The notes below the pieces were generated by a model. It made no database searches and had not been told where the DNA came from. It saw nothing but the letters and a program-made list of their open reading frames with translations. Shown piece by piece: positions 5,251-63,232 of a DNA stretch of 64,000 bases (its first letter is position 1; the number at the start of each line of letters is the position of its first letter). This stretch comes from Chloroflexota bacterium (GTDB taxonomy: Bacteria; Chloroflexota; Dehalococcoidia; Lucifugimonadales; JACPQL01): the NCBI GenBank assembly GCA_016190445.1, contig JACPQL010000049.1, positions 3,710-67,709 on the forward strand, given 5' to 3'. A program made the position numbers and the translations under genes.

Positions 5251-8200
5251 CTATCCTCCGGCCTGCGTCCGGCTGGCGGCCAGCAGGGCATCGCGACGGG
5301 CCCTCTGCTGCTCGCGGGGTAGCGGAGGCGCCACGTGCGGCAGGGGCGCCACCTTCTTGAAGCGCGGCAGGTACTCGTCCCACCGGGCCAGGACCTCCCC
5401 CGCCATGGGGCTCTCTGTTAGCTGGTGGTGGCGCTGCACCAGCGAGCGCAGGTTCTCCACATCGTCCGGGTCATCCACAGGGCCAACGCCCACCATCTCC
5501 GGGTTGACGCGCCTCTGGAGCTGTCCGTCCTGGTCCAGCGCGTAGGCCATTCCCCCGGACATACCGGCGCCGAAGTTGCGCCCCGTGGGCCCTAGCACCA
5601 CCACCACTCCGCCGGTCATATACTCGCAGCAATGGTCTCCCGCGCCCTCCACCACCGTCCAGGCACCGGAGTTGCGCACCGCGAACCTCTCCCCTGCCTT
5701 GCCTGCGGCGAAGAGCCTGCCGCCAGTGGCCCCGTAGAGGACAGTGTTACCCATGATGACGCTTTCGTGGGGGAGGAAAGCGGCGTTCTCCGGAGGGCGC
5801 ACCACCACCTCACCGCCGTGCATCCCCTTGCAGACGTAGTCGTTGGCCTCTCCCACCAGCACCAAGCGCATCCCCTCTATGCAGAAGGCACCGAAGCTCT
5901 GGCCTGCGGAGCCCCTGAACCGGAGTTCAATGGAGCCCTCCGGCAGGCCAACGTCCCCGTAGCGGTAGGCGATCTCGCCCGCAATCCGTGCTCCCACCGC
6001 CCGGTGCACGTTGCGTATTCCCCGCTCCGGCACCACCGGGCCCTTGCCCTCCAGGGCTGGCCGTACCAGTGGCATAAGCTCGTCGTCCAGGGGCGGGTCT
6101 ACCGCCTGCCTGCCCCCTGGCTGGACACAGTACCTGGGGCGGTGGCCCTCCGGGTCTACCCGGCGCAGCACCCTGGAGAGGTCCACCGTGGCTGCCTTGG
6201 GGTGGTCTGGCACTGGCACCTGCTCCAGCAGGTCGGGGCGGCCTATGATCTCCTCCAGGGAGCGGGCGCCCATAGAGGCCAGAATCTGCCTCACCTCCTC
6301 TGCGACATAGAAGAGGAACCGGACGACCATCTCTGGCGTTCCCCAGAACTTCTTCCTCAGCTCAGGGTCTTGTGTTGCTACCCCTACGGGGCAGGTGTTC
6401 AGGTGTCACTGCCGTGCTATCTGGCACCCCACGGCCACCATGGCGGCCGTGCCAAAGGCGTACTCCTCTGCGCCCAGGAGGGCCGCCATCACCACGTCCC
6501 GTCCTGTGCGCAGCCCGCCGTCGGTGCTCAGCACCACCCGGCCCCGCAGGTCGTTGAGCACCAGCACCTGCTGGGTCTCAGCCAGCCCCGTCTCCCAGGG
6601 TGCGGCAGCGTTCTTGATGGAGCTGAGGGGTGAGGCCCCGGTGCCACCTTCGTGGCCGCTTATGTGGATGACGTCCGCCTTGGCCTTGGCCACCCCAGCG
6701 GCTATGGTGCCCACGCCCGCCTCAGCCACCAGCTTCACCTGCACCTGAGCCCTGGGGTTCACTGTCTTCAGGTCGTAGATTAGCTGGGCCAGGTCCTCGA
6801 TGCTGTAGATGTCGTGGTGCGGTGCGGGAGATATGAGCGGCACCCCAGGCTGGGTGTGGCGAATGCGGGCGATGATCTCCGTCACCTTGTGGCCTGGGAG
6901 CTGGCCGCCCTCGCCAGGCTTGGAGCCCTGGGCCATCTTGATCTCCAGGACGTCGGCCATGGCCAGGTATTCAGGAGTCACTCCGAAGCGGCCCGACGCC
7001 ACCTGTTTGATTCGGCTGTTGGAGCTATCGGAGCCATTGATACGGGCCCGATAGCGGCGTGGGTCCTCGCCACCCTCGCCGCTGCCACTCTTGCCGCCGA
7101 CCCGGTTGAAACCTATGGCGATGGCCTCGTGGGCCTCCATGCTCAGGGCGCCGAAGGACATGGAGCCGCTCTTGAACCTTTTCACTATCTGACTGGCCGG
7201 CTCCACCTCCTGTAGGGGCACGGGTGGCCCCAGGGGCTTCAGCCGCGTGAGGTGCCGCAGGGCCATGGGGTCCTCGGCCTCCACCTGGCCAACGTACTCC
7301 CTGTATGCATGGCCATCCCCATCTCGCAGGGCCTTGTGCAAGACACGCACCAACTGGGGCGCGAAGGCGTGGAGTTCGCCCCCTCTGCGGAAGCGGTAGT
7401 AGCCGTAGTCTTCCAGCCGCGCGATGCCGTCCTGCCCGACGCCGAAGGCAAGGCGGTGGTGCTCCAGCGCCTCCTGGGCCATCTCCTCAAACCCCAGTCC
7501 TCCCACTGCGGAGGGGGTACCAGTGAAGCACCGCTCAATCACATCGCTGTGGATACCCACCGCCTCGAAGACCTGGGCCCCGTGGTACGCGGTGATGGTG
7601 GATATGCCCATCTTGGACATGATCTTGAGGAGTTGTTTGTCCATGACCTTGCGGTAGGTAGCGACGGCCTTCTCCGGGCCAAGGCCCTCATCGTGCTCTT
7701 CTGTCGCCATCTGGCGCACCGTGGCCACGGCCAGATAAGGATTGATGGCGCTGGCGCCGTAGCCGATGAGGGCCGCCATCTGGTGCATCTCCCGGGCCTC
7801 GCCTGTCTCGGCGATGATGCTGACGGACATGCGCCTCCCCTGGCGAATGAGGTGGTGGTGGAGAGCGCCCACCGCCAGCAGCATGGGAATAGGGGCGTGC
7901 TCGGAGTCCACGCCGCGGTCGCTCACGATGAGGAGGGAGCATCCCTGTGCCACGGCCTCCTCGGCCCGGGCACACAGCTCTTTCAGGGCGGGCTCCAGCG
8001 CCGCAGTGCCGCCCTTTGCCCGGAACAGCGCCGGCAGGGTGGCACACCTGAAAGCGGGGTCCGGGTTGCACAGGATGGCCTCCATCTCGGCATCGCTCAG
8101 GATGGGGCTGGGTAGCCGCAGGAGGTGGGCGTGCTCCGGCGTCTCCTCCAGCAGGCTATGGCGCGGGCCCAGGTAGGTGTACAGGGACATGACGAGTTGC

Positions 8201-9846
8201 TCGCGCAGGGGGTCTATGGCGGGGTTAGTCACCTGGGCGAACCGTTGCTTGAAATAGCTGTACAGAAGGCGAGGCTTCTTGGCCAGCGCCGCCAGCGGCG
8301 TATCATCCCCCAGGGAGCCCACGGGCTCAACCCCCTGGGCGAACATGGGGCCCAACACCATGTGACACTCCTCGCTGGTGTATCCGAAGGCACGCTGTAG
8401 CTGGATGAGAGGGGGCTCCTTCTTCCCCGCGCTGGCGGGGCTTCCCCTGGACTGCGTCCTTCCTGGGGAGGACTGCGTGAGGCCGTCCAGGTGCACCAGA
8501 TGGTGTCGCAGCCACTCTCCATAGGGCCGGCGGTGAGCTACCTGGTCCTTTATCTCCTCGTTCCTCAGCAGCCGTCCCCTGGCAGTATCCACGGCGATCA
8601 TCTGGCCGGGGCCCAACCGCCCCTTCTCCACCACGTGGGCGTCGTCCAGGTCAACGGTACCCACCTCGGAGGCCATGACAATAATGCCGTCGTCGGTAAC
8701 CTTGTACCTGGCGGGGCGCAGGCCGTTGCGGTCCAGGGCCGCGGCCACCGTGACACCGTCGGTGAAGGCCAGGGCAGCGGGGCCGTCCCACGGCTCGGTC
8801 AGGCAGGCGTGGTACTCGTAGAAGTCCCGCCACGCCGGGGCCATGTCCGGCATGTTCTCCCACGCCTCGGGTACCAGCACCATCATGGAGTGCAGCAGGT
8901 CCCGTCCGGAGAGGACCAGGGCCTCCAGCACATTGTCCAGGCTGGCGGAGTCGCTGCCGCCCGGCTGGGAGAGCGGAGGGAGGTGGGCCACCTCCTTCCC
9001 CAGCAGGGCGGAGCGCAGCTCCGGCTCCCGCGCTCGCACCCAGTTCCTGTTCCCCTGGAGGGTGTTGATCTCGCCGTTGTGGGCCAGGAGGCGGAACGGC
9101 TGGGCCAGCACCCAGTTTGGGAAGGTGTTGGTGCTGTAGCGCTGATGGAACAGTGCCAGGGCTGTGGTGAAGTCAGGGCGCTGTAGGTCCAGGTAAAAGT
9201 CCCTGAGATGGGTGGCGGTGAGCAGCGCCTTGTAGACAATGGTGTGGGAGGAGAGAGAGGCAATGTACGCCGCCACTCGGTCCCGGACAAAGCGCGACTC
9301 CGCCTCCTTGCGCGCCAGATAGAGCGAGCGCTGGAAGGCCGCAGCGTCCATGCCCTCGGGCCGCAGCAGTAGCAGGTGGCGGATGGAGGGCAAGGTGGCC
9401 CGGGCGCTCTCCCCCAGCACCGATGGATCAACGGGGACATCCCTCCAGCCCACCACGGGGAGGCCCCGGCGGGCGGCTACCTCTTCAAGGACGTGGCAGC
9501 CGCGGGCAGCCTGCTCGGCGCCAGGGGGCAGGAAGACCACCCCCACCGCCAGGTCGCCGTCGGCGCTCACCCGGTGGCCGTGGCGCTCCGCCTCGGCGGC
9601 GAAGAGGTCAGCGGGTATCTGAGTCAGCACGCCGGCCCCGTCCCCGGTCCTGGCATCGGCGGAGACAGCGCCTCGATGGGTGACGTTGGCCACCGATGTC
9701 AGCGCTTTTTCGAGAATGGCATGGCTCCTGTGGCCTGATATGTCAGCCACAAAGCCCACGCCACAGGCGTCGTGTTCGAACTGAGGGTCGTACAGCGTTC
9801 CGTCATGTGATAAAGGTACCATCGCCGTTGGGTCCTCTCCAAACAC
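5251..9846 (-). CDS. gltB: glutamate synthase large chain, single 1531-codon polypeptide (Fd-GOGAT-like; no gltD adjacent), with in-frame UGA
   Basis: Track ORFs 6406-9846 and 5251-6330 share one frame and are split only by TGA 6406-6408. The product has EHDACGVGFVA (Ntn amidotransferase Cys), FMN-domain blocks and a C-terminal GXGXG domain (GMRLVLVGEANDYVCKGMHGGEVVV). Read-through gives [33 protein letters not shown]. Confidence 0.9.
6378..6394 (-). promoter_or_regulatory. SECIS-like stem-loop downstream of the gltB UGA
   Basis: On the mRNA: UGA, 11 nt (CACCUGAACAC), then CUGCCCC-GUA-GGGGUAG (7 bp including one G-U pair). Confidence 0.4.
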
Positions 9847-42835: not shown

Positions 42836-42922
42836 CGGGGGTCTGGGGGTGTCCCCCAGATTCATTCTTCTCTCCCTCTCCCTTGCCAAGGGAGAGGGAG
42901 ACACAGGGGGGTGAGGGATTTC
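42836..42922 (+). repeat. hairpin-rich intergenic repeat, copy A (partial)
   Basis: cgggggtctgggggtgtcccccag...ccctctcccttgccaagggagaggg...ggggggtgaggg. Shares the 3' two-thirds of the element at 58996-59115 and (inverted) 54985-55095. Confidence 0.7.
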
Positions 42923-53753: not shown

Positions 53754-54229
53754 CTGGTGCGCACCGTTCGTTGTCATACCCGGTACGGCTTGCAGTGCCT
53801 GTCCCCGTGTAAGATTCTACTACCAGGAATAGGAAGGTGTCTGCTGCATCCTGTGCAGGGTTCGAATCCATTCAGGTGGGCCACGGCAAACACAGGGACG
53901 TTTATGTCCAGGGGTGGTGTAGAGTCAAGAGCCCCGGCGACGCAAGATGGGAACCCTCGAGTCAGACCGGGCCATTTGGCGAAAGGGGAGAGGGCATCTT
54001 GTCACAAAGGTGAGGTATGAAGGACTCACCGGACAGATGCCAACGACGCCGTGGGGTACATTGACTCGGCCATGCGTGCGGACGCTGCAAGGTTGGCGGA
54101 GTCAAGCCAGGTTGAGCCGGAGGATACCTGTCATACTCGGGACGGAACCGTTCACCGGTCTCCGAGTGGCGCTATCTTCTCGACGTCTCTTCTAGCAGCC
54201 CTCGCTCTCGACCGCCTCGCGCGCTGGGC

Positions 54230-54880
54230 TCACTTGATCAGCCCCCTCTCCACAGCGACTCGGACCGCCTCAGTCCTGCTCCCAGCCCCCAGTTTGGACA
54301 TGATACTGGCGACGTGGCTCTCGACGGTCTTTGCTGAGATCGAAAGGTGCTGGGCTATCTCCATGTTTCGGAGCCCCTGTGACATCAGTTCGACCACGTC
54401 AATCTCCCGCAAAGTGAGTTCGTCCGGCTGCGAGCGCCCGATGGCCGGGCGCTCTTGGGAGTAGCTACGTATTACCTTGGATGCTATCGGGGACGGCAGT
54501 ACGGCTCCGCCCTCCGCAACCTCGCGGACGGCTTGCACCAGTGTCTCCTGCGGCGCGTCTTTCAGGAGATACCCGTCAATCCCAAGCCTGACGGCCGCCC
54601 TTACATACTGGTCGAAGTCGTATCCCGTAAGCACGAGAAGTTTCAGGTGCGGGTGTTGCTGGCGCAGCAAGCGAACCAGCTCGAGCCCTGACATCCCGCG
54701 CAATCGGATATCCACAATCGCAACCGACGGCTGCACTTGTGCCAGCAGCCCGAGAGCCTCCTCTGCCGAAGCTGCCTCTCCCACCACCAGGATGTCAGAC
54801 TCCTGCTCCAAGCGGTTCCGTATGCCCTCGCGGAACATGCGCTGGTCTTCGACAATGAGGACTTTGATAGGCAGCTTCAC
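54230..54880 (-). CDS. NarL/LuxR-family response regulator (ComA-like position in the cassette)
   Basis: KVLIVEDQRMFREGI, AIVDIRLRGMSG, LTLREIDVVELMSQGLRNMEIAQHLSISAKTVESHV. GTG start, 216 aa. Confidence 0.9.
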   Translation of the reverse strand: MKLPIKVLIVEDQRMFREGIRNRLEQESDILVVGEAASAEEALGLLAQVQPSVAIVDIRLRGMSGLELVRLLRQQHPHLKLLVLTGYDFDQYVRAAVRLGIDGYLLKDAPQETLVQAVREVAEGGAVLPSPIASKVIRSYSQERPAIGRSQPDELTLREIDVVELMSQGLRNMEIAQHLSISAKTVESHVASIMSKLGAGSRTEAVRVAVERGLIK

Positions 54881-54984
54881 CAGGCGCCCTTTCTACCTGT
54901 CGCGTGCACTAGTACTTGCTTTCTGAAGTCAGCGTTATCATGCGCAAGCCTTCTCCCTCACGCTCGCGCCTCATTCGCCCAATG

Positions 54985-55095
54985 ACCCATCCCCCTCGAT
55001 CCCCCTTCCTTTTCTGGAAGGGGGAAGAAGAAGGGAGCTGGGAGACACCCCCAGACCCCCGCCAGAGGGGGCCGCGCCCCCTCTGGACACCCCCG
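54985..55095 (-). repeat. hairpin-rich intergenic repeat, copy B (inverted relative to copy C)
   Basis: The reverse complement reads gggggtgtccagagggggcgcggccccctctggcgggggtctgggggtgtctcccagctcccttcttcttcccccttcc...ggaagggggatcgaggggga and aligns along its length with 58996-59115. Confidence 0.7.
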
Positions 55096-55131
55096 TAAAC
55101 GAATTTTGGGAGACTTCACCTGTCGTGTGCA

Positions 55132-57453
55132 CTATGGGAGGGGCACGGCGGCAACCACCGTGGTCCCCACTCCAGGCGCAGACCGAATCTCAAAAGAACC
55201 GTTCACCTGTACAATCCTCTCGCGCATCCCGGAGAGCCCGAACCCCTCTTTGCTGTCAAAGTCTGGGCTGAACCCGACCCCGTCGTCCCGCACCTCAATG
55301 CCCACCCGCCTGGCCTGCCGTGACAGGGACACGTCTATGCGAGTGCCGTGGGAGTGCTTCATCGCGTTGTTGGTGGCCTCCTGGGTTACACGGAACAGGG
55401 CCAGCTCCGTATCTGCCGGAAACCTCTCATCTTCATCCACGTCATGCAGCGACAGTCGAGTTACCATGCTGGATTGTCGTGATACTCCCTCCAGGAGCCA
55501 CTCAAGGGCCGCAGCAAGCCCCAAGTCGTCAAGGACTGCGGGCCTGAGGCGCGAGCAGATCTCTCGGAGCTCAGACGCAAGCTGGCGGGCCATGCTGGCT
55601 CGGCCTTCTGCGCCCTTCGGAAGGTCGAGCATGAGCGCCATTGCCTTCTGAAGAGGCCCATCGTGGATATCACCGGCCATGCGCGCCCGCTCGTCTTCTG
55701 CTGCTCTGACTAGCCGCTGGTTCAGCGCTCGCAGCTCCTCCGCAAGTTGGCTCTTATCAATCGCCAGGGCTAGCAGGGGCGACAGGGTGGCGACGAATCC
55801 TTTCTCCTCCGCCAGGAACACCTCTCCGCCCTCTTTCGGGCCCAGCAGAATGCGGCCAAGGCATCGCCCCGATAGTTCCAGGTTTACCAGTAGGAAGGAA
55901 TCAGACTCCCATCTGAGGTCAATGACTCCCCGACTGTCTGGCGCTCTGGCGGAGGCTTCAAGCTGGGGAGAGAGGCGCTGAAGTACATCGTCGGCCCGAG
56001 GCCCAGCCTTCGCTATTGGCTGACGTGCTCCGTCACCGGTCCCTGGGAGAACAATTGCTGACTCGAGGCGAAGCACCTGCGCAAGCTGCTTCGCAATTGT
56101 CTCCCCTACCATGATGGTACGATCGGAGACGAGGATGTTCCGATGGACGGTCTCCAGGGCAGTCTGGTAGTCCACTACGTCTCTGTAAATGAGGTTGTCC
56201 ACCAGCCACCACGCTCCGCGACGCAAAGGGAGAAACAGGGCTATGCCGCCAACCAAGATTGCGACGTTGAGAAGCCTCAGGTTTCCGCTGCGACCCGCCC
56301 TGCCAGCCAGTGGTTCAATCACCACCATGCTGATTGCGAGTAAGACGAGCAAGGCCAGAGTTGCCACGCCGTAGACCATGCCACGGTGGACCAGTCGTCG
56401 GATTCCCAGCAACTGATGCTGGAGAATAGCATAGGCGAAGGAGGCAGGCATGACTCCGAGGGCGAGCACTGTGATGTGGTCAGGAAGTAGGGATGAGCGC
56501 CCCAAGACTTTGGGCATGAGGGAAAGACCCGCAAAAGGCACTATACTCAAGGCTGTTCCCCACAACAGCAGTCGGGCTTGGATTTGGCCGAGCGCCGACC
56601 GGCGCCGCACTGCCTCGACCAAAAGCACTGTGAATCCACCTAGAACTGAGGCCGACACGAAGAGCAGGACCGCTGGCCTCACCACCGCGTAGAGAGACGG
56701 GGTGGCCAGGAGGGAGACCCCATAAGAGGCCCCAAGGAAGAGCCCCACGCCTGCGAACATGAAGGTGAGGGAAGGGTGTCGTGAGTCTGTAGGACCACGG
56801 GTGATGGCGGACACAAACGGAAGGAAAGACTGGCCAATGCCGATGAGGCTAATGCCCTGAAGGATACGTGCCCAGTAGGGCGCGGGTCCCCCGGCGCTGG
56901 GCCCCACCGCCAGGGCTACTGCCACGAAGCCTGCAAAAACCCAGAACATCCTGGCTGCGGCGAGGTCGGGCCGACGCAGGACGACGGCCGAGCCCAGCAA
57001 GGCGAACATTGCGCCGATGGCCCACAGCGAGAACTTCATCGGGCTGCGGGACATCGCTGGGTAGGTCATCTCCATGCGGAGTATGTTTCCACCAGACCCC
57101 ATCATCTCAATCTGCACAACGGGCCCTCGGGGAGCAGCGTCAATGTCGCCTGCTGTCACGCTCCGCCCGTTCACAGACAGGACTGGCATCCCTGGCCTGG
57201 CGCCGTAGAACCAGCCCAGGCCCCCTGGCACGGCTCTCGAAATGCAAGGTGCCTCTCCGCAAAGCCCTACCTCGAGACCCAGGGAGCCTGACTGCAACGT
57301 GGACCCGTAGGAGGCCACGGCCAGAGCCGAGTAGACGGCGACCAGGAAGAACGCCGCGAGTCTGGGAAAGAGAGAGCTATAGGCGGACAGAGGCCCGCTA
57401 AACCGCGACAGCCACCGCTGGTTGGTCAACCACGGAACCGAGGAAGTCTTCAA
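55132..57453 (-). CDS. polytopic (~10 TM) sensor histidine kinase, HisKA_3 + HATPase_c (ComP-like architecture)
   Basis: 773 aa. One N-terminal TM, a ~100-aa extracytoplasmic segment, about nine further hydrophobic helices and a cytoplasmic linker, then H-box ERARMAGDIHDGPLQKA and ATPase blocks EATNNAMKHS, DDGVGF and GFGLSGMRERI. TTG start with GGAGGTGAGG upstream. Overlaps the upstream gene by 56 nt. Confidence 0.85.
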   Translation of the reverse strand: MKTSSVPWLTNQRWLSRFSGPLSAYSSLFPRLAAFFLVAVYSALAVASYGSTLQSGSLGLEVGLCGEAPCISRAVPGGLGWFYGARPGMPVLSVNGRSVTAGDIDAAPRGPVVQIEMMGSGGNILRMEMTYPAMSRSPMKFSLWAIGAMFALLGSAVVLRRPDLAAARMFWVFAGFVAVALAVGPSAGGPAPYWARILQGISLIGIGQSFLPFVSAITRGPTDSRHPSLTFMFAGVGLFLGASYGVSLLATPSLYAVVRPAVLLFVSASVLGGFTVLLVEAVRRRSALGQIQARLLLWGTALSIVPFAGLSLMPKVLGRSSLLPDHITVLALGVMPASFAYAILQHQLLGIRRLVHRGMVYGVATLALLVLLAISMVVIEPLAGRAGRSGNLRLLNVAILVGGIALFLPLRRGAWWLVDNLIYRDVVDYQTALETVHRNILVSDRTIMVGETIAKQLAQVLRLESAIVLPGTGDGARQPIAKAGPRADDVLQRLSPQLEASARAPDSRGVIDLRWESDSFLLVNLELSGRCLGRILLGPKEGGEVFLAEEKGFVATLSPLLALAIDKSQLAEELRALNQRLVRAAEDERARMAGDIHDGPLQKAMALMLDLPKGAEGRASMARQLASELREICSRLRPAVLDDLGLAAALEWLLEGVSRQSSMVTRLSLHDVDEDERFPADTELALFRVTQEATNNAMKHSHGTRIDVSLSRQARRVGIEVRDDGVGFSPDFDSKEGFGLSGMRERIVQVNGSFEIRSAPGVGTTVVAAVPLP

Positions 57454-58402
57454 GGCGCCTCACCTCCACGCCGCGGGCCCCGAGGCCAAGCAGGCTGGCC
57501 TTTGCCCTGTTGAGGAACACCTCGGCCACCACGGCGCAGAAAACCCTGGCACCGGAAGCCTCGAACTGGCGGCCCGTGCTGGCACGGTCCCGCTCTAGTT
57601 CGGCGTGGTGCCGCACACCGCCACTCTTGACGGGTGATTGTAGCAGGGAGCGACAGAAAAAGACTACGGGCACGGTCTGTTTGTGCCGTGCCAGGTCTCC
57701 CGGCAGACCCCGTTCTGGGCACACGTCCCTCATGTCGTCCACCAACTGGGCATACGTGAACAGATTGAGGCCGAAATCGCCCAGGACCCTGATGGTCGTG
57801 GACCCAGCCCCTGCGAGCGAGGCACCGAACTCCGCCGCCAGCCTGCCCAGCGAGCCTGCTTTGAGCGAGGTCATTGAGAGGGCCTGGTCCATGCGGGTGA
57901 GGGGGCTCCTCTCCAGGGAGGCGTCCATGAATTGTCCTGCGCAGGACTGGAGCGAAGTCCGGAACAGTCTGTTCAGAGCTTTGAAAGCGCGATTTCGTGG
58001 GCCTTGCTGTTGCGCCGCTTCGCTGGCGGCTGCAAAGGCACAGACCATTAGGGACACGGCCAGAGACAGCTCCTCCGCATCGGTACTGGCCAGCTCAATG
58101 CCAACGTCCTGATCGGCCAGGTGGTCGAACATGTAGGCTGAGTCCATCAGTAGCTCAACTGCGGCTGCCCCGCGGACCGCCTGCCTCGTAGGCGGCCCAG
58201 AGACGGCCTCAAAGGCGTGCAGGCAGAGGGCGCCGGTGTGGCAAGGGGCCTCCGGATGCAGGACAAGACCCGGCCGGCCCAGGGCGCGCAGCATGGCATC
58301 CCGGTGGGCCGGCTTCTGGCAGTGCCGGGTAACGCTTAGCCTGGCCTCTTGTCTTAGTGCGTCCAACACTGGACCGGCACCCCCTTCCTGAGCCGTCTTC
58401 AA
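57398..58402 (-). CDS. polyprenyl-diphosphate-synthase-fold protein with a degenerate first Asp-rich motif (ComQ-like candidate peptide prenyltransferase)
   Basis: AAAVELLMDSAYMFDHLADQD (FARM position, no DDxxD and no RRG), AGQFMDASLE...SLKAGSLGRLAAEFGASLAG, FTYAQLVDDMRDV (SARM), GLPGDLARHKQTVP. TTG start 3 nt after the peptide ORF stop. Confidence 0.6.
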   Translation of the reverse strand: MKTAQEGGAGPVLDALRQEARLSVTRHCQKPAHRDAMLRALGRPGLVLHPEAPCHTGALCLHAFEAVSGPPTRQAVRGAAAVELLMDSAYMFDHLADQDVGIELASTDAEELSLAVSLMVCAFAAASEAAQQQGPRNRAFKALNRLFRTSLQSCAGQFMDASLERSPLTRMDQALSMTSLKAGSLGRLAAEFGASLAGAGSTTIRVLGDFGLNLFTYAQLVDDMRDVCPERGLPGDLARHKQTVPVVFFCRSLLQSPVKSGGVRHHAELERDRASTGRQFEASGARVFCAVVAEVFLNRAKASLLGLGARGVEVRRLEDFLGSVVDQPAVAVAV

Positions 58403-58405
58403 GAC

Positions 58406-58615
58406 TTAGAACCACTCGCTCGTAGCTGGCTGCCCAATCCCGCCAGTGTCCGGTTTTGCTTGCAGCCGCTTCAGCAGGCTTCTTGCCGCGCTGGCAAACT
58501 CGTTGGTTGGCGACGCGCCACCGTCTTCGCCAGCGGCTAGACCCGCCAATGCGGGTCGCATGGGGCTGGTGCGGGTGGCCCTCGATAGGGCCTTCTCCAA
58601 TTCACTAAGTTTCAT
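58406..58615 (-). CDS. 69-aa candidate pheromone precursor (ComX-like) ending ...GQPATSEWF
   Basis: GGAAGGAGG, a 5-nt spacer, then ATG 58615. Product MKLSELEKALSRATRTSPMRPALAGLAAGEDGGASPTNEFASAARSLLKRLQAKPDTGGIGQPATSEWF. The 91-aa track ORF start at 58681 lacks an RBS. Confidence 0.5.
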   Translation of the reverse strand: MKLSELEKALSRATRTSPMRPALAGLAAGEDGGASPTNEFASAARSLLKRLQAKPDTGGIGQPATSEWF

Positions 58616-58663
58616 ATGGGCCTCCTTCCTGTACTTGTACTTGGCTGCGCGCCCGACGGCGGG

Positions 58664-58692
58664 AGAGTATGCCCTGCACAAGCGGAGTGCAA
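58664..58692 (-). promoter_or_regulatory. candidate promoter of the peptide-transferase-kinase operon
   Basis: Minus strand reads TTGCAC (58692-58687), a 17-nt spacer, then TACTCT (58669-58664). It is overlapped by the inverted repeat TGCAC-7 nt-GTGCA (58675-58691). Confidence 0.3.
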
Positions 58693-58702
58693 CCGTGCCT
58701 TA

Positions 58703-58728
58703 GGGGCTTTCACTTAGGTGAAAACCCT
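58703..58728. promoter_or_regulatory. palindromic candidate operator TTTCAC-N4-GTGAAA
   Basis: GGGGCTTTCAC-TTAG-GTGAAAACCCT, with a perfect 6-4-6 core at 58708-58723, about 93 nt upstream of the peptide ATG and just upstream of the candidate -35. Confidence 0.4.
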
Positions 58729-58995
58729 GAGTGTCCAGGTGAGCAGATGGCTGGTGGGTACGCCCTGCAAATGCTCAGAGGCCGCCTCGCCTTTGCCTTT
58801 CAAACGGACCTTGTGATTTTCGGGACACTCTGGAAGCTAGGACCGGCCGCGCTGGCTATCTGGCATGTGCATCAACGGGGACCTCTCTCACCTGGCGGGA
58901 GTCGGGGGTTTCACGGAGGGGCATACCCCGGCCCCACGGATGTGCCAGGTGAGCCGCCAATCTACCATACAAGGAAGTCATCTGAAAACTCGGTC

Positions 58996-59115
58996 CTGGG
59001 GGGAGTCCAGAGGGGGTTCCACCCCCTCTGGCGGGGTTCTAGGGGTGTCCCCTAGCTTCTCTCTTCTTTCCCCCTCTCCCTTCAGGGAGAGGGGGATCAA
59101 GGGGGTGAGGGTTTT
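58996..59115 (+). repeat. hairpin-rich intergenic repeat, copy C (full length)
   Basis: Hairpin 1 is CCAGAGGGGG-TTCCA-CCCCCTCTGG and hairpin 2 is CCCTCTCCCTT-C-AGGGAGAGGG, followed by GGGGGTGAGGG. Ends at the start of the next regulator ORF. Confidence 0.7.
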
Positions 59116-59193
59116 CAGATGAGTTCAAGTTGTGCCAGGGTGCAGTGGCTTGCAGGACCGGCAACCTGGCAAGAATCGCCTAAGGAGAGGAAC

Positions 59194-59874
59194 TTGAGCA
59201 CGGCCACGACTGCACGCCCGATCACCGTCCTAGTAGTTGACGACCACGAACTGGCCCGCCAGGGAGTTAGGCAATTCCTCAAGCCAAGCAGGCACATCAA
59301 GGTCGTAGGCGAAGCAGCGAACACCTCTGAGGCCATCCGTCTCATGAGCCAACTCCAACCGAGCGTCGTCCTGCTCGATATCCGGCTCGGCCAGGGCAGC
59401 GGCCTGGATGTTGCCCGGGCTGCCAAGGCGAGTGCCCCAGACACCAAGGTGCTGGTCCTCAGTGCCTACGACGATCGGCAGTACGTCAGCAGATCGAAAA
59501 GGCTGGGCGTCGCGGGGTACTTGATGAAAGGTCTCTCCCCGGAAGAACTCTCCAGGGCCGTCGAGGATACGGTCCATGGCAGACCCACATCTGCTCGCGA
59601 AGTGGCAGACAAAGTGTCCGGCCATGCCACACCGCACTGGGGGACCACCCAGAGGGTCCCACAAAGAAGGGAACTGACGGTGCGCGAATCGGAAGTGCTG
59701 GAACTCATGCTACAAGGCCTGCGAAATCGCGCCATCGCTGCTGCTTTGGGCATCTCCGTAAAGACCGTGGAAACCCATGTTGAGCACATACTTTTGAAGC
59801 TGGAGGCGGCTAGCCGAACGGAGGCCGTGCTTGCTGCCATCAAAGGCGGCTGGTTGGAAGAGGCTGTGTCTTGA
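59194..59874 (+). CDS. NarL/LuxR-family response regulator
   Basis: ITVLVVDDHELARQGV, VLLDIRLGQGSG, LTVRESEVLELMLQGLRNRAIAAALGISVKTVETHV. TTG 59194 is preceded by TAAGGAGAGG; the track start 59119 lies inside the repeat. Confidence 0.85.
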   Translation: MSTATTARPITVLVVDDHELARQGVRQFLKPSRHIKVVGEAANTSEAIRLMSQLQPSVVLLDIRLGQGSGLDVARAAKASAPDTKVLVLSAYDDRQYVSRSKRLGVAGYLMKGLSPEELSRAVEDTVHGRPTSAREVADKVSGHATPHWGTTQRVPQRRELTVRESEVLELMLQGLRNRAIAAALGISVKTVETHVEHILLKLEAASRTEAVLAAIKGGWLEEAVS

Positions 59875-60000: not shown

Positions 60001-60855
60001 TTGGCCGTTATGAACAGCATGGAAGGCGCCATAAGGGTGCTCTTGGTGGATGACCATCACATGGCCCGAGAGAGCCTGCGCCGCGTGCTTGCCGTGGAAC
60101 GAGACATACAGGTCGTCGCCGAGGCGTCGGATGGGCTAGAGGCGCTGGCAAAAATTCAGTCACTCGGGCCGGACGTTGTTCTCATGGACCTCCGAATGCC
60201 GAATATGGGCGGGCTGGATGCCCTGCAAGCCCTGAAAAGGATGAACCTCACGCGGAAGGTCATTGTCTTCAGTTTCTACGAGGAGTATCTGGCACGGGCG
60301 ATTGACGCTGGCGTGGGCGGTTATCTGCTCAAGGACGTGCCGCGTGGGGAGGTGCCCAACGCCATCCGGCGGGTGTACCGTGGCGAGTTGGTGCTCGGAA
60401 GCACTATCCGTTCCGGCCCTCAGGCGACTGCAAGCGTACTTCAACGTCTACAGGGAATAGGGCGCGTGAGGCCCGTGTCTCCTGAACACCGGGTAGAAGC
60501 AGAGCTGCTGATACAAGCGCCGGTGGAACCCACTCAGTTGCTTGAATTTATGGCTGGACTAAGACGCGACTTGGAGGCGGAGATTGCGGAGATGGCGCCT
60601 TTGCCGGGTGATCGAGGGATACGCCTCCGACTGATGCTACCTCTACGTGCCCCAGTGAAAGACACCTTGTCGGAATTGCCGCAGGTAGAGTCGCTGCTGG
60701 AAGAGCAGCCGACGGGAGGATTTCACCAGGAAGGGTACGGCGCCCTTGGCCGGGATGCCGGTCTTCGATTTCGTGTCGCTCTCAAGTGCTCGTCCGCTGA
60801 CACAGGCCGGAGGGATGCCGGGCCGCTCGCGGGTCAACCGGGCGCCAGCGGCTAG
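60001..60855 (+). CDS. REC-domain protein with an unrecognised ~140-aa C-terminal domain (no HTH seen)
   Basis: IRVLLVDDHHMARESL, VLMDLRMPNMGG, GVGGYLLKD, then EAELLIQAPVEPTQLLEFMAGLRRDLEAEIAEM... with no family recognised. The start is TTG 60001, ATG 60010 or ATG 60019. Confidence 0.7.
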   Translation: MAVMNSMEGAIRVLLVDDHHMARESLRRVLAVERDIQVVAEASDGLEALAKIQSLGPDVVLMDLRMPNMGGLDALQALKRMNLTRKVIVFSFYEEYLARAIDAGVGGYLLKDVPRGEVPNAIRRVYRGELVLGSTIRSGPQATASVLQRLQGIGRVRPVSPEHRVEAELLIQAPVEPTQLLEFMAGLRRDLEAEIAEMAPLPGDRGIRLRLMLPLRAPVKDTLSELPQVESLLEEQPTGGFHQEGYGALGRDAGLRFRVALKCSSADTGRRDAGPLAGQPGASG

Positions 60856-61030
60856 CTGGGCAGTCCGTGCGAGGGAACCCAGCAGTTCGGGACGTGCTTG
60901 AGGACTGCATTGGGAATGAGGAAGGCAGGGAATGCGTGAGCGAACTGTCACTGCTGCCGCTCGTCCGGGTAGACGCCATGAATCAGTGCGTCGGCAATCT
61001 CGTGAGTCGAACGGTTCAGGGTCCAACCGA

Positions 61031-63232
61031 ATGCAAACAGAGGAGGAAGCTGAGGCGTTCCTGGAATTGCTGCCGGACGCTGTGGTGATCGTTGACCGTG
61101 AAGGGCACATAACATATATCAACGGCGAGACGGAAAGGATGTTCGGCTACAGCCGTGCTGAAGTGCGCGGAGTGGCCGTGGAAATCTTGATGCCCGAGCG
61201 CTTCAGGAAGCGACATAGTGAACAACATGCGAAGTACTTCTCGGACCCGCGAGTCGAGCCGATGGGGATCGGCTTGGAGAAATACGGCAGACGCCGTGAC
61301 GGTAGTGAGTTCCCTGTTGACATCATGGTCAGCCCCTTCAGGACAAGAGCTGGCTCCGCGTTCATTGCTGTTGCTCGTGACGTCAGTGACCGGAAGCGCA
61401 TGGAGGAGGACCTGCTCAAGGCAAACCGCGGGCTCAGGATGCTGAGCCGCTGTAACGAAGTGTTGGTGCACGCCACTGAGGAGTCAGACCTACTTCAGAA
61501 TATATGCCGAATCGTCGTGGAGATCGGTGGATACAGACTGGCGTGGGTCGGGTTTGCCGAGCACGACAACAGGAAGAGGGTGCGCCCCGTAGCGCAAGCG
61601 GGGTGCGAGCAAGAATACCTTGACGGGCTGGATACCAGATGGTCGAATGCCAAACAGGGTCGCGGCCCCACCGGGCAAGCTATCCGCCTGGGCAAACCGT
61701 CAATAATGCGTGATATCTTGCGGGACCCCAACTACGAACCCTGGCGCGCTCAAGCAGCCGAGCGAGGCTTCGCATCGTCCATCGCCCTGCCTCTCACCGC
61801 CGGTGGCAGTACGTTCGGAGCACTGAACGTCTACTCAGCGAGGCCGGACGCTTTTGACGGCGACGAGGTGAAGCTGTTGATGGAACTCGCAGCCGACTTG
61901 GCTTATGGCATCATGGTCATCCGCACTCGTGCACAGCACAAGCGCACGGATGAGGCGCTGCGTTCCAGCGAACACCTGCTGGCCAACGTCTTGCGCCTGG
62001 CACCAGACGCCGTCATATCAGTTGATGAAATGCAACACATCCGCCTTTTTAATCGGGCAGCCGAGGTGATTTTCGGCTACTCTGCGGAAGAGGTAGAAGG
62101 GAAGCCGCTGGACGTCCTGTTGCCCGAGCGATTCGTTGAACTGCATCACGCACATGTGCAGGAGTTCAGCCAGTCGCCGGCGGCAGTGCGTTACATGAAC
62201 CAACGAGGTCCTGCGCACGGTCGGCGCAGGAATGGGACAGAGTTTCCCGCCGAGTGCGCCATATCCAAGGTGGAAAGCGATGGCCAGAAAACCTTCGTTG
62301 CGGTGGTGCGTGATATTACCGAACGCGTGCAAGCAGAAGAGACACTACAGGAGAGTAACCACCGGTTGGAGAAGGCGCTAGGAGACCTGAAAGCAGCGGA
62401 ATCGCAACTCGTCCGGCAGGAACGCCTGAACGCCCTGGCGCAGATGGCCGGAGGCATTGCTCACGACTTCAACAACGCACTGACGGGGATTATTGGCTTC
62501 AGCGACCTGCTGCTCAGTCGCCGAACGATCCTGAACGATAGGGAGCAGGTGACACGCTACTTGCGCCTGATAAACACAACCGCCATGGGCGCAGCGAGCA
62601 CGGTCCACCGGATGCGCGAGTTCTACCGAACTCGCCAGGATACCGATGTCTACGCGCCAGTCAACATCAACCAGGTGGTGGAGCAAGCCATCTCCCTCAC
62701 TCAGCCCAAGTGGAAGAATGAGGCGGAAGGAAGCGGCAGTGCTATCAGCATCCACACCGAGCTGGAGCAAGTGCCTCGCGTCGAGGGAAATGAGGGTGAA
62801 CTCCGGGACGCACTGGTCAACCTGATATTCAATGCGGTGGACGCGCTCGCTCCTCCGCATCGGGGTGAGGGGCCATCGAAACAAGGAATAATAGGTCTCC
62901 GCACTCGGGACCTGGGGGACCATGTGATTGTCGAGGTGACGGATACCGGCGTTGGGATGACCGAGGAGGTCCGGCGACGTTGCCTGGAGCCGTTCTTCAC
63001 CACCAAGGGCCAGGTAGGGACAGGCCTGGGCCTGGCGATGGTCCACGGCACCGTTCAGCGGCACAATGGGTCAATTGACATCGCGAGCGCACTGGGTGAG
63101 GGGACCACCGTCAGCATCCGCCTCCCCGTCCACGGCGCGCAGAAGGGAGAGGGAAGTTGGACAGCAACACCAGCCGCGTCGCGCCCGCCGATGGAGGCGT
63201 GGGGGCCGCCCGCGGGGCTACAAGTGTCATGA
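61031..63232 (+). CDS. cytoplasmic PAS-GAF-PAS sensor histidine kinase (HisKA + HATPase_c)
   Basis: LLPDAVVIVDREGHITYING (PAS), GYRLAWVGFAEHD...GFASSIALPL (GAF), LAPDAVISVDEMQHIRLFN (PAS), MAGGIAHDFNNAL (H-box), DTGVGM, GTGLGLAMV. The Arg-rich track N-extension from 60932 was dropped. Confidence 0.88.
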   Translation: MQTEEEAEAFLELLPDAVVIVDREGHITYINGETERMFGYSRAEVRGVAVEILMPERFRKRHSEQHAKYFSDPRVEPMGIGLEKYGRRRDGSEFPVDIMVSPFRTRAGSAFIAVARDVSDRKRMEEDLLKANRGLRMLSRCNEVLVHATEESDLLQNICRIVVEIGGYRLAWVGFAEHDNRKRVRPVAQAGCEQEYLDGLDTRWSNAKQGRGPTGQAIRLGKPSIMRDILRDPNYEPWRAQAAERGFASSIALPLTAGGSTFGALNVYSARPDAFDGDEVKLLMELAADLAYGIMVIRTRAQHKRTDEALRSSEHLLANVLRLAPDAVISVDEMQHIRLFNRAAEVIFGYSAEEVEGKPLDVLLPERFVELHHAHVQEFSQSPAAVRYMNQRGPAHGRRRNGTEFPAECAISKVESDGQKTFVAVVRDITERVQAEETLQESNHRLEKALGDLKAAESQLVRQERLNALAQMAGGIAHDFNNALTGIIGFSDLLLSRRTILNDREQVTRYLRLINTTAMGAASTVHRMREFYRTRQDTDVYAPVNINQVVEQAISLTQPKWKNEAEGSGSAISIHTELEQVPRVEGNEGELRDALVNLIFNAVDALAPPHRGEGPSKQGIIGLRTRDLGDHVIVEVTDTGVGMTEEVRRRCLEPFFTTKGQVGTGLGLAMVHGTVQRHNGSIDIASALGEGTTVSIRLPVHGAQKGEGSWTATPAASRPPMEAWGPPAGLQVS

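Follow-up and report, generated by a model that had tools for sequence, protein, structure and literature searches.

X and its neighbours in a Chloroflexota contig

We analysed a stretch of 64,000 nucleotides (nt) from a Chloroflexota bacterium (GenBank assembly GCA_016190445.1, contig JACPQL010000049.1, positions 3,710 to 67,709; below called the window) that contains a 69-codon open reading frame (ORF), X, ending in Trp-Phe. On the same strand X is followed by genes for an enzyme with the trans-prenyltransferase fold (Q), a polytopic sensor kinase (P) and a response regulator (A), and upstream of X a second response regulator gene points in the opposite direction (Table 1). Sequencing runs from the source groundwater that carry this contig include SRR12113390, SRR12113401 and SRR12113433. 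A preliminary description of this DNA, made from the sequence alone, had likened X to the precursor of the Bacillus pheromone ComX and had called the next gene transferase-like. The gene directly downstream of X indeed encodes a PF00348 enzyme; this enzyme, the polytopic HisKA_3-type kinase and the regulator with REC and GerE domains make up the domain set of ComQ, ComP and ComA.

The 69-codon ORF represents a genuine and conserved gene, since its frame, start codon and ribosome-binding site (RBS) are kept in homologous loci, the ratio of non-synonymous to synonymous substitution rates (dN/dS) is 0.15-0.6 in pairwise comparisons among the 69-residue members, and independent gene callers predict the same 69-residue X in several assemblies. 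All loci with sequence upstream of the start (31/31) have an AGGAGG-type site a few nt ahead of the start codon aligned to the ATG of the window, and the conserved frame and start are those of the 69-residue reading put forward earlier. On the minus strand the start of X reads AGGAAGGAGG-CCCAT-ATG (ATG at 58615-58613), with the near-ideal RBS (GGAAGGAGG, 5 nt before the ATG, spacer CCCAT) that had already been pointed out. The 3' end consists of TGG (58414-58412), TTC (58411-58409) and TAA (58408-58406), so that the peptide ends in SEWF with a penultimate Trp, as described. The complete peptide is MKLSELEKALSRATRTSPMRPALAGLAAGEDGGASPTNEFASAARSLLKRLQAKPDTGGIGQPATSEWF; Ala, Gly, Ser and Pro make up 45% of it and there is no hydrophobic stretch, in line with the earlier statement that it is rich in these residues and has no signal peptide or transmembrane helix. 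An AlphaFold model of low confidence (predicted local distance difference test (pLDDT) 58) has helices at residues 3-16, 20-28 and 38-52 and a low-confidence, unstructured tail at 56-69.

A longer reading of 91 residues, which starts at TTG 58681 in the same frame and comes from the longest-ORF list, was rejected: no purine-rich or RBS-like site was seen upstream of this TTG, as had been noted before, the starts of the aligned homologues coincide with ATG 58615, and a promoter-like element, including its -10 hexamer, lies inside the N-terminal extension. The transcript start that follows from this element would be at about 58657, downstream of TTG 58681, which independently favours the 69-residue start. 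A non-coding RNA was rejected as well, as Rfam matches were sub-threshold and all located outside the X ORF (59004-59105) and dN/dS was below 1. The claim that X is unannotated proved wrong: GenBank holds an identical 69-residue protein ('hypothetical protein HYY00_08275 [Chloroflexi bacterium]'), and X is also predicted by gene callers. In a locus of Candidatus Polarisedimenticolia (L047, 4802-4996) an X of 64 residues that ends in HPWF and lies 4 nt before Q is uncalled in the public annotation, and at least some records thus overlook X genes.

As short peptides of variable sequence are difficult targets for a direct search, we used the neighbouring enzyme Q as the query. This search yielded about 40 proteins with 41-55% identity, a later profile search yielded 206 proteins, and by taking the DNA around relatives we obtained 9 genome and 32 metagenome loci. 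Usable upstream sequence was available for 39 loci; in 37 of these an ORF of 61-71 residues ending in Trp-x-stop lies directly 5' of the enzyme gene, and in the remaining two the upstream ORF ends in Pro-Trp-Ile-Ile. The pooled set comprises 76 distinct homologous X peptides (61-98 residues as called, mode 69), with Trp at position -2 in 74 and at -3 in the other two; elsewhere in these peptides there is a single Trp in 5040 residues, located inside a mis-called N-terminal extension. The placement of the penultimate Trp is far beyond chance. It had been expected that homologous loci would conserve the C-terminal Trp and its flanking residues alone; the Trp is conserved as foreseen, but so is the helical leader, and the restriction to the Trp region did not stand.

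A HMMER search with the X peptide alone retrieved homologues ending in DWM, EWF, DWI and DWW, and a search with an X profile gave 46 proteins, every one of them ending in W-x. The leader has the consensus MEIxE[LF]EKAxR...LPxEFxxAAxSLAxR, with E7, E39, A43, R50 and W68 invariant. A second subfamily (MDAIALAQxLD...GxISL...ELAxAVxSLAGR...PWF) resembles the first in the C-terminal half only (hhalign E=6e-5, probability 65%), and the Trp is kept in both. Pfam and NCBIfam scans of both subfamilies gave no match, neither to ComX nor to NHLP. The peptides invariably end in an uncharged residue (S, M, A, T, V, W, I, F or L, never Gly or Pro), and this residue behind the invariant Trp varies even between near-identical X peptides (e.g. 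...TTARWA/WL/WV/WS/WT/WI and ...AAQWS/WM/WT/WW/WA). It could be a pherotype-like specificity position, or could simply be unconstrained.

Another important finding was that X and Q are part of a larger conserved unit. A tblastn comparison with all loci showed the order X-Q-P-A on one strand wherever sequence suffices, with one exception (L006, see below), and about 30 loci carry the cassette, distributed over Chloroflexota, Verrucomicrobiota, Acidobacteriota and Alphaproteobacteria. The sources include metagenome-assembled genomes (MAGs) of Chloroflexota/Dehalococcoidia, a Verrucomicrobiia MAG (106-kb contig), a Dongiaceae MAG (Alphaproteobacteria) and Candidatus Polarisedimenticolia (Acidobacteriota). 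Homologues of the kinase (39-51% identity over the full length) directly follow Q, homologues of the regulator (54-65%) directly follow the kinase, and in Chloroflexi-type loci homologues of the divergent regulator (41-58%) are found upstream of X. In another Dehalococcoidia locus (L009, 1.9-Mb contig, about 5800-9500) Q is matched only from residue 156 and is apparently frameshifted upstream, no X ORF was seen, and the kinase (in two tblastn pieces) and regulator follow; this may be a decayed, 'receiver-only' cassette.

The kinase P has about 9-10 hydrophobic or transmembrane segments (residues 28-410), and a loop of about 95 residues follows the first of them; beyond the segments are a weak GAF-like region and HisKA_3 and HATPase_c domains. 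HATPase_c was clearly recognised (E=1.6e-16) and HisKA_3 weakly (18.1 bits, below the cut-off of 24), and the NCBIfam matches of the kinase core are all to HisKA_3-type kinases, e.g. MctS, UhpB, LiaS and NarQ.

The enzyme Q and the region upstream of X

The longest ORF for Q starts at TTG 58402 and has 334 residues, 3 nt after the X stop codon. We favour the GTG at 58369, as homologues begin with MLxxLR aligned at this position and gene callers predict 323 residues and a 36-nt gap. The 3-nt gap between X and the transferase-like gene that was reported earlier consequently applies to the longest ORF and not to the favoured start. Q is a single-domain PF00348 protein (E=1e-13), and its AlphaFold model (pLDDT 84) shows the all-alpha trans-isoprenyl diphosphate synthase (trans-IPPS) fold. 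The best structural matches of the model are geranylgeranyl diphosphate (GGPP) synthases and the indole prenyltransferase Ord1 (9V4G-J), with template-modelling scores of 0.72-0.76. By sequence the nearest proteins are short-chain GGPP synthases; canonical synthases compare with the Q family at E values of about 1e-6, and family members at less than 1e-28.

Across 28 diverse members of the Q family F92, D93, D97, G156, Q157, K181, Q219, D222, D223, D226, D236 and K241 are invariant, and D99 and D160 are kept as well. The first Asp motif reads D93-H-L-A-D97-Q-D99 in the window, its second position being variable and Glu in some members, and the second motif reads D222-D223-M-R-D226. In an alignment with two canonical synthases the GKRLRP of the latter corresponds to APC[RH]xG in the Q family, and their DDxxDxxxxRR to FDxxADxD, without the RR. 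The family has thus retained its binding residues for the allylic diphosphate and the metal and has lost the basic ones for isopentenyl diphosphate. Within this superfamily, loss of the isopentenyl diphosphate-binding residues makes chain elongation less likely and points to transfer to a different acceptor. With neither GKRxRP nor the RR that follows the first motif, the Q family is unlikely to elongate chains.

We aligned the 200 nt 5' of X from 21 Chloroflexi-type loci and found a 24-bp imperfect palindrome in 20 of them (consensus GGGTTTyCACGTArGGGTArrCCC), L006 being the locus without it. The distance between palindrome and X start is 107-126 nt, and 107-114 nt in 18 of the 20 loci. About 10 nt past the palindrome a TTGnnn-N17-TAnnAT element occurs at a fixed position in all 20 loci, so that a putative promoter of X is indicated by cross-locus conservation. 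A search for perfect 6-N-6 inverted repeats was too strict for most loci; the alignment and a weight matrix succeeded. When the 64-kb window was scanned with this matrix one further site appeared, on the opposite strand and facing the divergent regulator gene, and in six other loci (L004, L013, L015, L017, L022 and L032) opposite-strand palindromes were found 110-170 nt before the homologous divergent regulator gene. All other sites of at least 17 bits in 306 kb of loci are the palindromes upstream of X, these six opposite-strand copies and two weak ones (17.5-18.2 bits), which are located just past the divergent regulator gene (L003/L025 and L005). A palindrome that abuts the -35 hexamer of a weak promoter is the usual layout for activation by a dimeric LuxR-type regulator. 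Because the palindrome abuts the -35 hexamer of the weak, putative X promoter and a second copy faces the divergent regulator gene, the cassette probably activates itself, with the palindrome as the candidate operator.

Table 1. Features of the X-Q-P-A locus, with positions in the window
Feature	Position	Strand	Basis or remark
A gene, ComA-like response regulator, 216 residues	54230..54880	-	REC E=6.8e-26; GerE/LuxR helix-turn-helix E=3.3e-19
P gene, ComP-like sensor kinase, 773 residues	55132..57453	-	overlaps Q by 56 nt
Q gene, ComQ-like trans-prenyltransferase-fold enzyme, 323 residues	57398..58369	-	PF00348; start from homologue alignment and gene calls
X gene, candidate ComX-like precursor, 69 residues, MKLSELEKALSR...QPATSEWF	58406..58615	-	stop included; frame and start kept in homologues
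Trp68 TGG codon, predicted prenyl acceptor, penultimate residue	58412..58414	-	invariant column in two homologue alignments
Shine-Dalgarno site GGAAGGAGG	58621..58629	-	5-nt spacer CCCAT to ATG; AGGAGG-type site in homologous loci
Promoter-like element: -35 TTGCAC (58692-58687), 17-nt spacer, -10 TACTCT (58669-58664)	58664..58692	-	cross-locus conservation
Palindrome GGGTTTTCACCTAAGTGAAAGCCC, candidate NarL/LuxR-type regulator site	58704..58727	-	10-4-10, one mismatch; about 11 nt upstream of -35
Second, weaker palindrome copy GGGGTTTCACGGAGGGGCATACCC, facing the divergent regulator gene	58905..58928	+	weight matrix, 19.7 bits
Divergent second NarL/LuxR-type response regulator, start codon uncertain	59119..59874	+	domain scan; conserved in Chloroflexi-type loci

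Several further features surround the cassette. Beyond the divergent regulator gene (60001-63232, plus strand) the window encodes a receiver-domain protein of 284 residues without a recognised output domain and a cytoplasmic sensor kinase of 766 residues, and a homologue of the former is also found near the cassette in L002. In the Verrucomicrobiia locus (L045, 11947-13095) genes for a stand-alone receiver protein and an EAL protein (cyclic di-GMP phosphodiesterase) directly follow X-Q-P-A and are a possible output of the cassette. A 78-nt repeat flanks X-Q-P in inverted orientation (82% complementary), with one copy (55017-55094) in the kinase-regulator intergenic region, which measures 250 nt here and about 40 nt in homologous loci, and the other (58999-59076) between the X promoter and the divergent regulator gene; a partial third copy is found at a distance of 12 kb (42836-42881). 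Rfam matches within the repeat were sub-threshold only, and it looks like a dispersed intergenic element of the repetitive extragenic palindrome or miniature inverted-repeat transposable element type.

A candidate prenyl-peptide signalling cassette

The reading of X as a ComX-like precursor, made in the preliminary description, is supported by the conserved Trp, the adjacent PF00348 enzyme, the kinase and regulator set and the precedent of StheX, a 69-residue peptide from Sphaerobacter thermophilus (Chloroflexi) of which the penultimate Trp68 is farnesylated by the adjacent ComQ homologue StheQ (bioRxiv 10.64898/2026.08.29.745113). We consider it fairly probable that X is the precursor from which a prenylated signalling peptide is made, with Trp68 being prenylated by Q and the product being sensed by the adjacent kinase. 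Prenylation, cleavage, export, sensing and autoregulation are steps that we infer from the sequence, and they could be connected as follows. X would be translated from ATG 58615 as a cytoplasmic protein of 69 residues, of which the leader (about residues 1-52) is conserved and helical and the tail flexible. Q would bind the leader and move a prenyl group (geranyl, farnesyl or the like) from its diphosphate onto Trp68, using the retained Mg-binding residues D93, D97 and D99 and the Q219/D222 region. The tail would then be cleaved and released by factors encoded outside the cassette, as in Bacillus, and the lipopeptide would be sensed by the polytopic NarL-type kinase P, which would phosphorylate the LuxR-type regulator A. 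Finally, the cassette may activate itself via the palindrome near the X promoter and the second copy at the divergent regulator gene.

On a wider claim our judgement is evenly balanced, namely that this is a complete X-Q-P-A prenyl-peptide quorum-sensing cassette well outside the Firmicutes, with its own precursor family, a DDxxD-type branch of Trp prenyltransferases and a self-activating operator, and present in uncultured Chloroflexota and in the diderm Verrucomicrobiota, Acidobacteriota and Alphaproteobacteria.

A number of observations weigh against reading the locus as a signalling cassette of the ComX kind. No exporter or protease gene was found adjoining the cassette in the three annotated contigs that were examined. 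In a Dehalococcoidia locus on a 376-kb contig (L006, 5732-6966) only X and Q are present, with no homologue of the kinase or regulator within 6 kb downstream. Pfam gave no match to any family, ComX (PF05952) included, for the window X at E<=0.1 or for 26 family members at E<=1, and within clades the X tail varies rather little, in contrast to the hypervariable pherotypes of Bacillus. A simple sigma-70 scan of 54000-59300 called no promoter, the hexamers in the window being weak relative to the consensus. With respect to the enzyme, the first motif of Q is D-x-x-x-D and not a strict DDxxD, although both metal-ligand positions are kept, and the invariant D222 (28/28 aligned members) takes the place of an Asn in ComQ (N186) and StheQ (N215). 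The latter belongs to the pseudo-second motif of StheQ (N215-D216-x-x-D219), with N186 as its counterpart in ComQ, and changing N to D in this motif lowered the activity of ComQ by about 90% and that of StheQ by 98% (bioRxiv 10.64898/2026.08.29.745113). Other Trp prenyltransferases (PalQ, ChrPC and Ord1) are thought to use a Gln upstream of the second motif together with the first Asp of that motif (PMC13290415), and by analogy a DDxxD enzyme could therefore plausibly prenylate indole.

The evidence that Q acts on X would also fit a prenylated ribosomal peptide whose job is mainly a non-signalling one, for instance an antimicrobial, a surfactant or a membrane-anchored lipopeptide, with the two-component system controlling its production or immunity. 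Prenylated Trp peptides can be membrane-active (review PMC13290415), L006 has X and Q without kinase and regulator, and the StheQ preprint calls the biological role of its peptide unknown. We nevertheless hold such a function to be rather unlikely, as kinase and regulator are part of the same operon at nearly all loci and in four phyla, often with overlapping genes, and as the polytopic kinase resembles the peptide-sensing ComP. Moreover, each locus has a single precursor gene, and no immunity gene, ABC transporter or protease was found in the cassette in the three annotated contigs.

X might also be an unmodified small cytoplasmic protein of which the helical body regulates Q or the kinase and the C-terminal Trp serves as a docking residue. 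The N-terminal two thirds of X are indeed conserved and predicted to be helical, and StheX and StheQ form a stable complex (bioRxiv 10.64898/2026.08.29.745113); conserved leaders are, however, normal for precursors that are recognised by an enzyme, and an invariant penultimate Trp in a disordered tail beside a prenyltransferase without isopentenyl diphosphate site is the substrate signature of ComX, PalX and StheX, which makes an unmodified protein quite improbable. Even less credible, in our view, is that Q is an ordinary short-chain prenyl diphosphate synthase, in agreement with its database name 'geranylgeranyl pyrophosphate synthase', and X an unrelated small gene. The best sequence and fold matches of Q are GGPP synthases and its second Asp-rich motif is a canonical DDxxD, but the lack of GKRxRP and RR, the D-x-x-x-D form of the first motif and the gap in E values between canonical synthases and family members all speak against this, and the strict co-occurrence of Q with X, kinase and regulator would be left unexplained.

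If the reading of X, Q, P and A as a prenyl-peptide signalling cassette is correct, a kind of lipidated-peptide signalling regarded as 'Gram-positive' is also used by Gram-negative lineages. To our knowledge, peptide pheromones with a prenylated Trp were previously believed to occur in Bacillus and its relatives only, and none of the three Gram-negative phyla had a cassette of this kind described. Its hosts belong to several phyla and are mostly uncultured environmental bacteria. The StheQ/StheX preprint presented the first enzyme-peptide pair from Chloroflexi, without a receptor or role, and the present locus and its approximately 30 relatives would supply the missing link, as their precursor, transferase, polytopic kinase and regulator genes form a single operon that carries a conserved candidate operator. 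The small X ORF is in itself less interesting than this cassette, which is conserved, rearranged, probably self-activating and ComQXPA-like, with a precursor family of its own. Cell-cell signalling in the host groups and the compatibility of a canonical DDxxD with indole prenylation have now become testable, and the Q proteins are candidate new Trp prenyltransferases accepting a penultimate Trp that could serve in peptide lipidation.

Comparison with known systems

The 2014 census of ComQXPA defined the system by its domain set and by four adjacent genes on the same strand, and found no locus outside the Firmicutes (PMC4008528), and a 2022 survey listed Chloroflexi with a kinase-regulator pair only (PMC8895600). 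The hosts described here are Chloroflexota and three Gram-negative phyla, in contrast to the Firmicutes of the census. The present locus shares with ComQXPA the four adjacent same-strand genes and, like that of Bacillus, contains no exporter or protease. By the criteria of the census (PMC4008528) X is like ComX (52-73 residues) in its length of 69 residues, the absence of a signal peptide and a Trp within the last 5-10 residues, and Q is like ComQ as a single-domain PF00348 enzyme of about 300 residues next to the precursor. The kinase corresponds to ComP (polytopic, about 770 residues, HisKA_3 (PF07730) and HATPase_c (PF02518)) and the regulator to ComA (REC (PF00072) and GerE/LuxR (PF00196)). 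There are clear differences as well. ComQXPA has the gene order Q-X-P-A, whereas this locus and all homologous ones have X-Q-P-A, and X differs from ComX in having no PF05952 match, a Trp fixed at -2 and a well-conserved leader. Q has D-x-x-x-D and DDxxD motifs, whereas ComQ has DDxxD and NDxxx. The conserved palindrome and the divergent second regulator suggest feedback in the cassette, unlike in B. subtilis, where signal production reportedly proceeds without feedback (PMC7794433).

By description, StheX is a close parallel to X in several respects: both come from the phylum Chloroflexota and have 69 residues, a Trp68, a helical body, a flexible tail and an adjacent enzyme with the trans-IPPS fold. 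In StheX the body is ordered and the last ten residues are disordered (bioRxiv 10.64898/2026.08.29.745113). The same work described D85 and D89 of StheQ, in a first motif D85-E86-x-x-D89, as metal ligands, and D91, K174 and Q212 as contacts. The StheQ residues D85, D89, D91, D153, A167, K174 and Q212 correspond to D93, D97, D99, D160, A174, K181 and Q219 of Q with a constant offset of +7/+8, which is no proof of close kinship, as this spacing is common to the whole superfamily. The stheX gene is located downstream of stheQ, whereas X is upstream of Q, and StheX has two Trp residues (WW-x) where X has one. The preprint, dated 31 August 2026, described no linked kinase or regulator and left the biological role open (bioRxiv 10.64898/2026.08.29.745113). 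Sphaerobacter and StheQ gave no match in our genome scan or among the best 120 of the 206 proteins in our protein searches, and StheQ is probably a separate branch from the Q family.

In Paenibacillus alvei genes for a kinase, a precursor and a Trp prenyltransferase (PalP, PalX and PalQ) likewise form a cluster, with the precursor being listed ahead of the transferase (PMC10853753). PalX resembles X in its conserved leader and the conserved Trp at the C-terminal end, but its leader is of the NHLP type and its chain ends with the Trp itself, neither of which holds for X (PMC10853753); a C-terminal extension of PalX abolishes PalQ activity (PMC13290415). PalQ forms a distant cluster of its own within the isoprenoid-synthase superfamily and is restricted to Firmicutes. 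With the short-chain trans-prenyl diphosphate synthases (e.g. PDB 1WY0, 3NF2 and 6KD7) and Ord1, to which its sequence identity is only 15-22%, Q shares the second Asp motif, the Gln three residues before it and a conserved Lys and Asp, whereas it differs from these synthases in the absence of the basic residues that bind isopentenyl diphosphate and in its context of a peptide gene and a two-component system. We have set Q against ComQ and StheQ by motif and description, and in Q the NDxxx motif is replaced; the locus would thus work like ComQXPA, as a variant and not as a plain member of that system.

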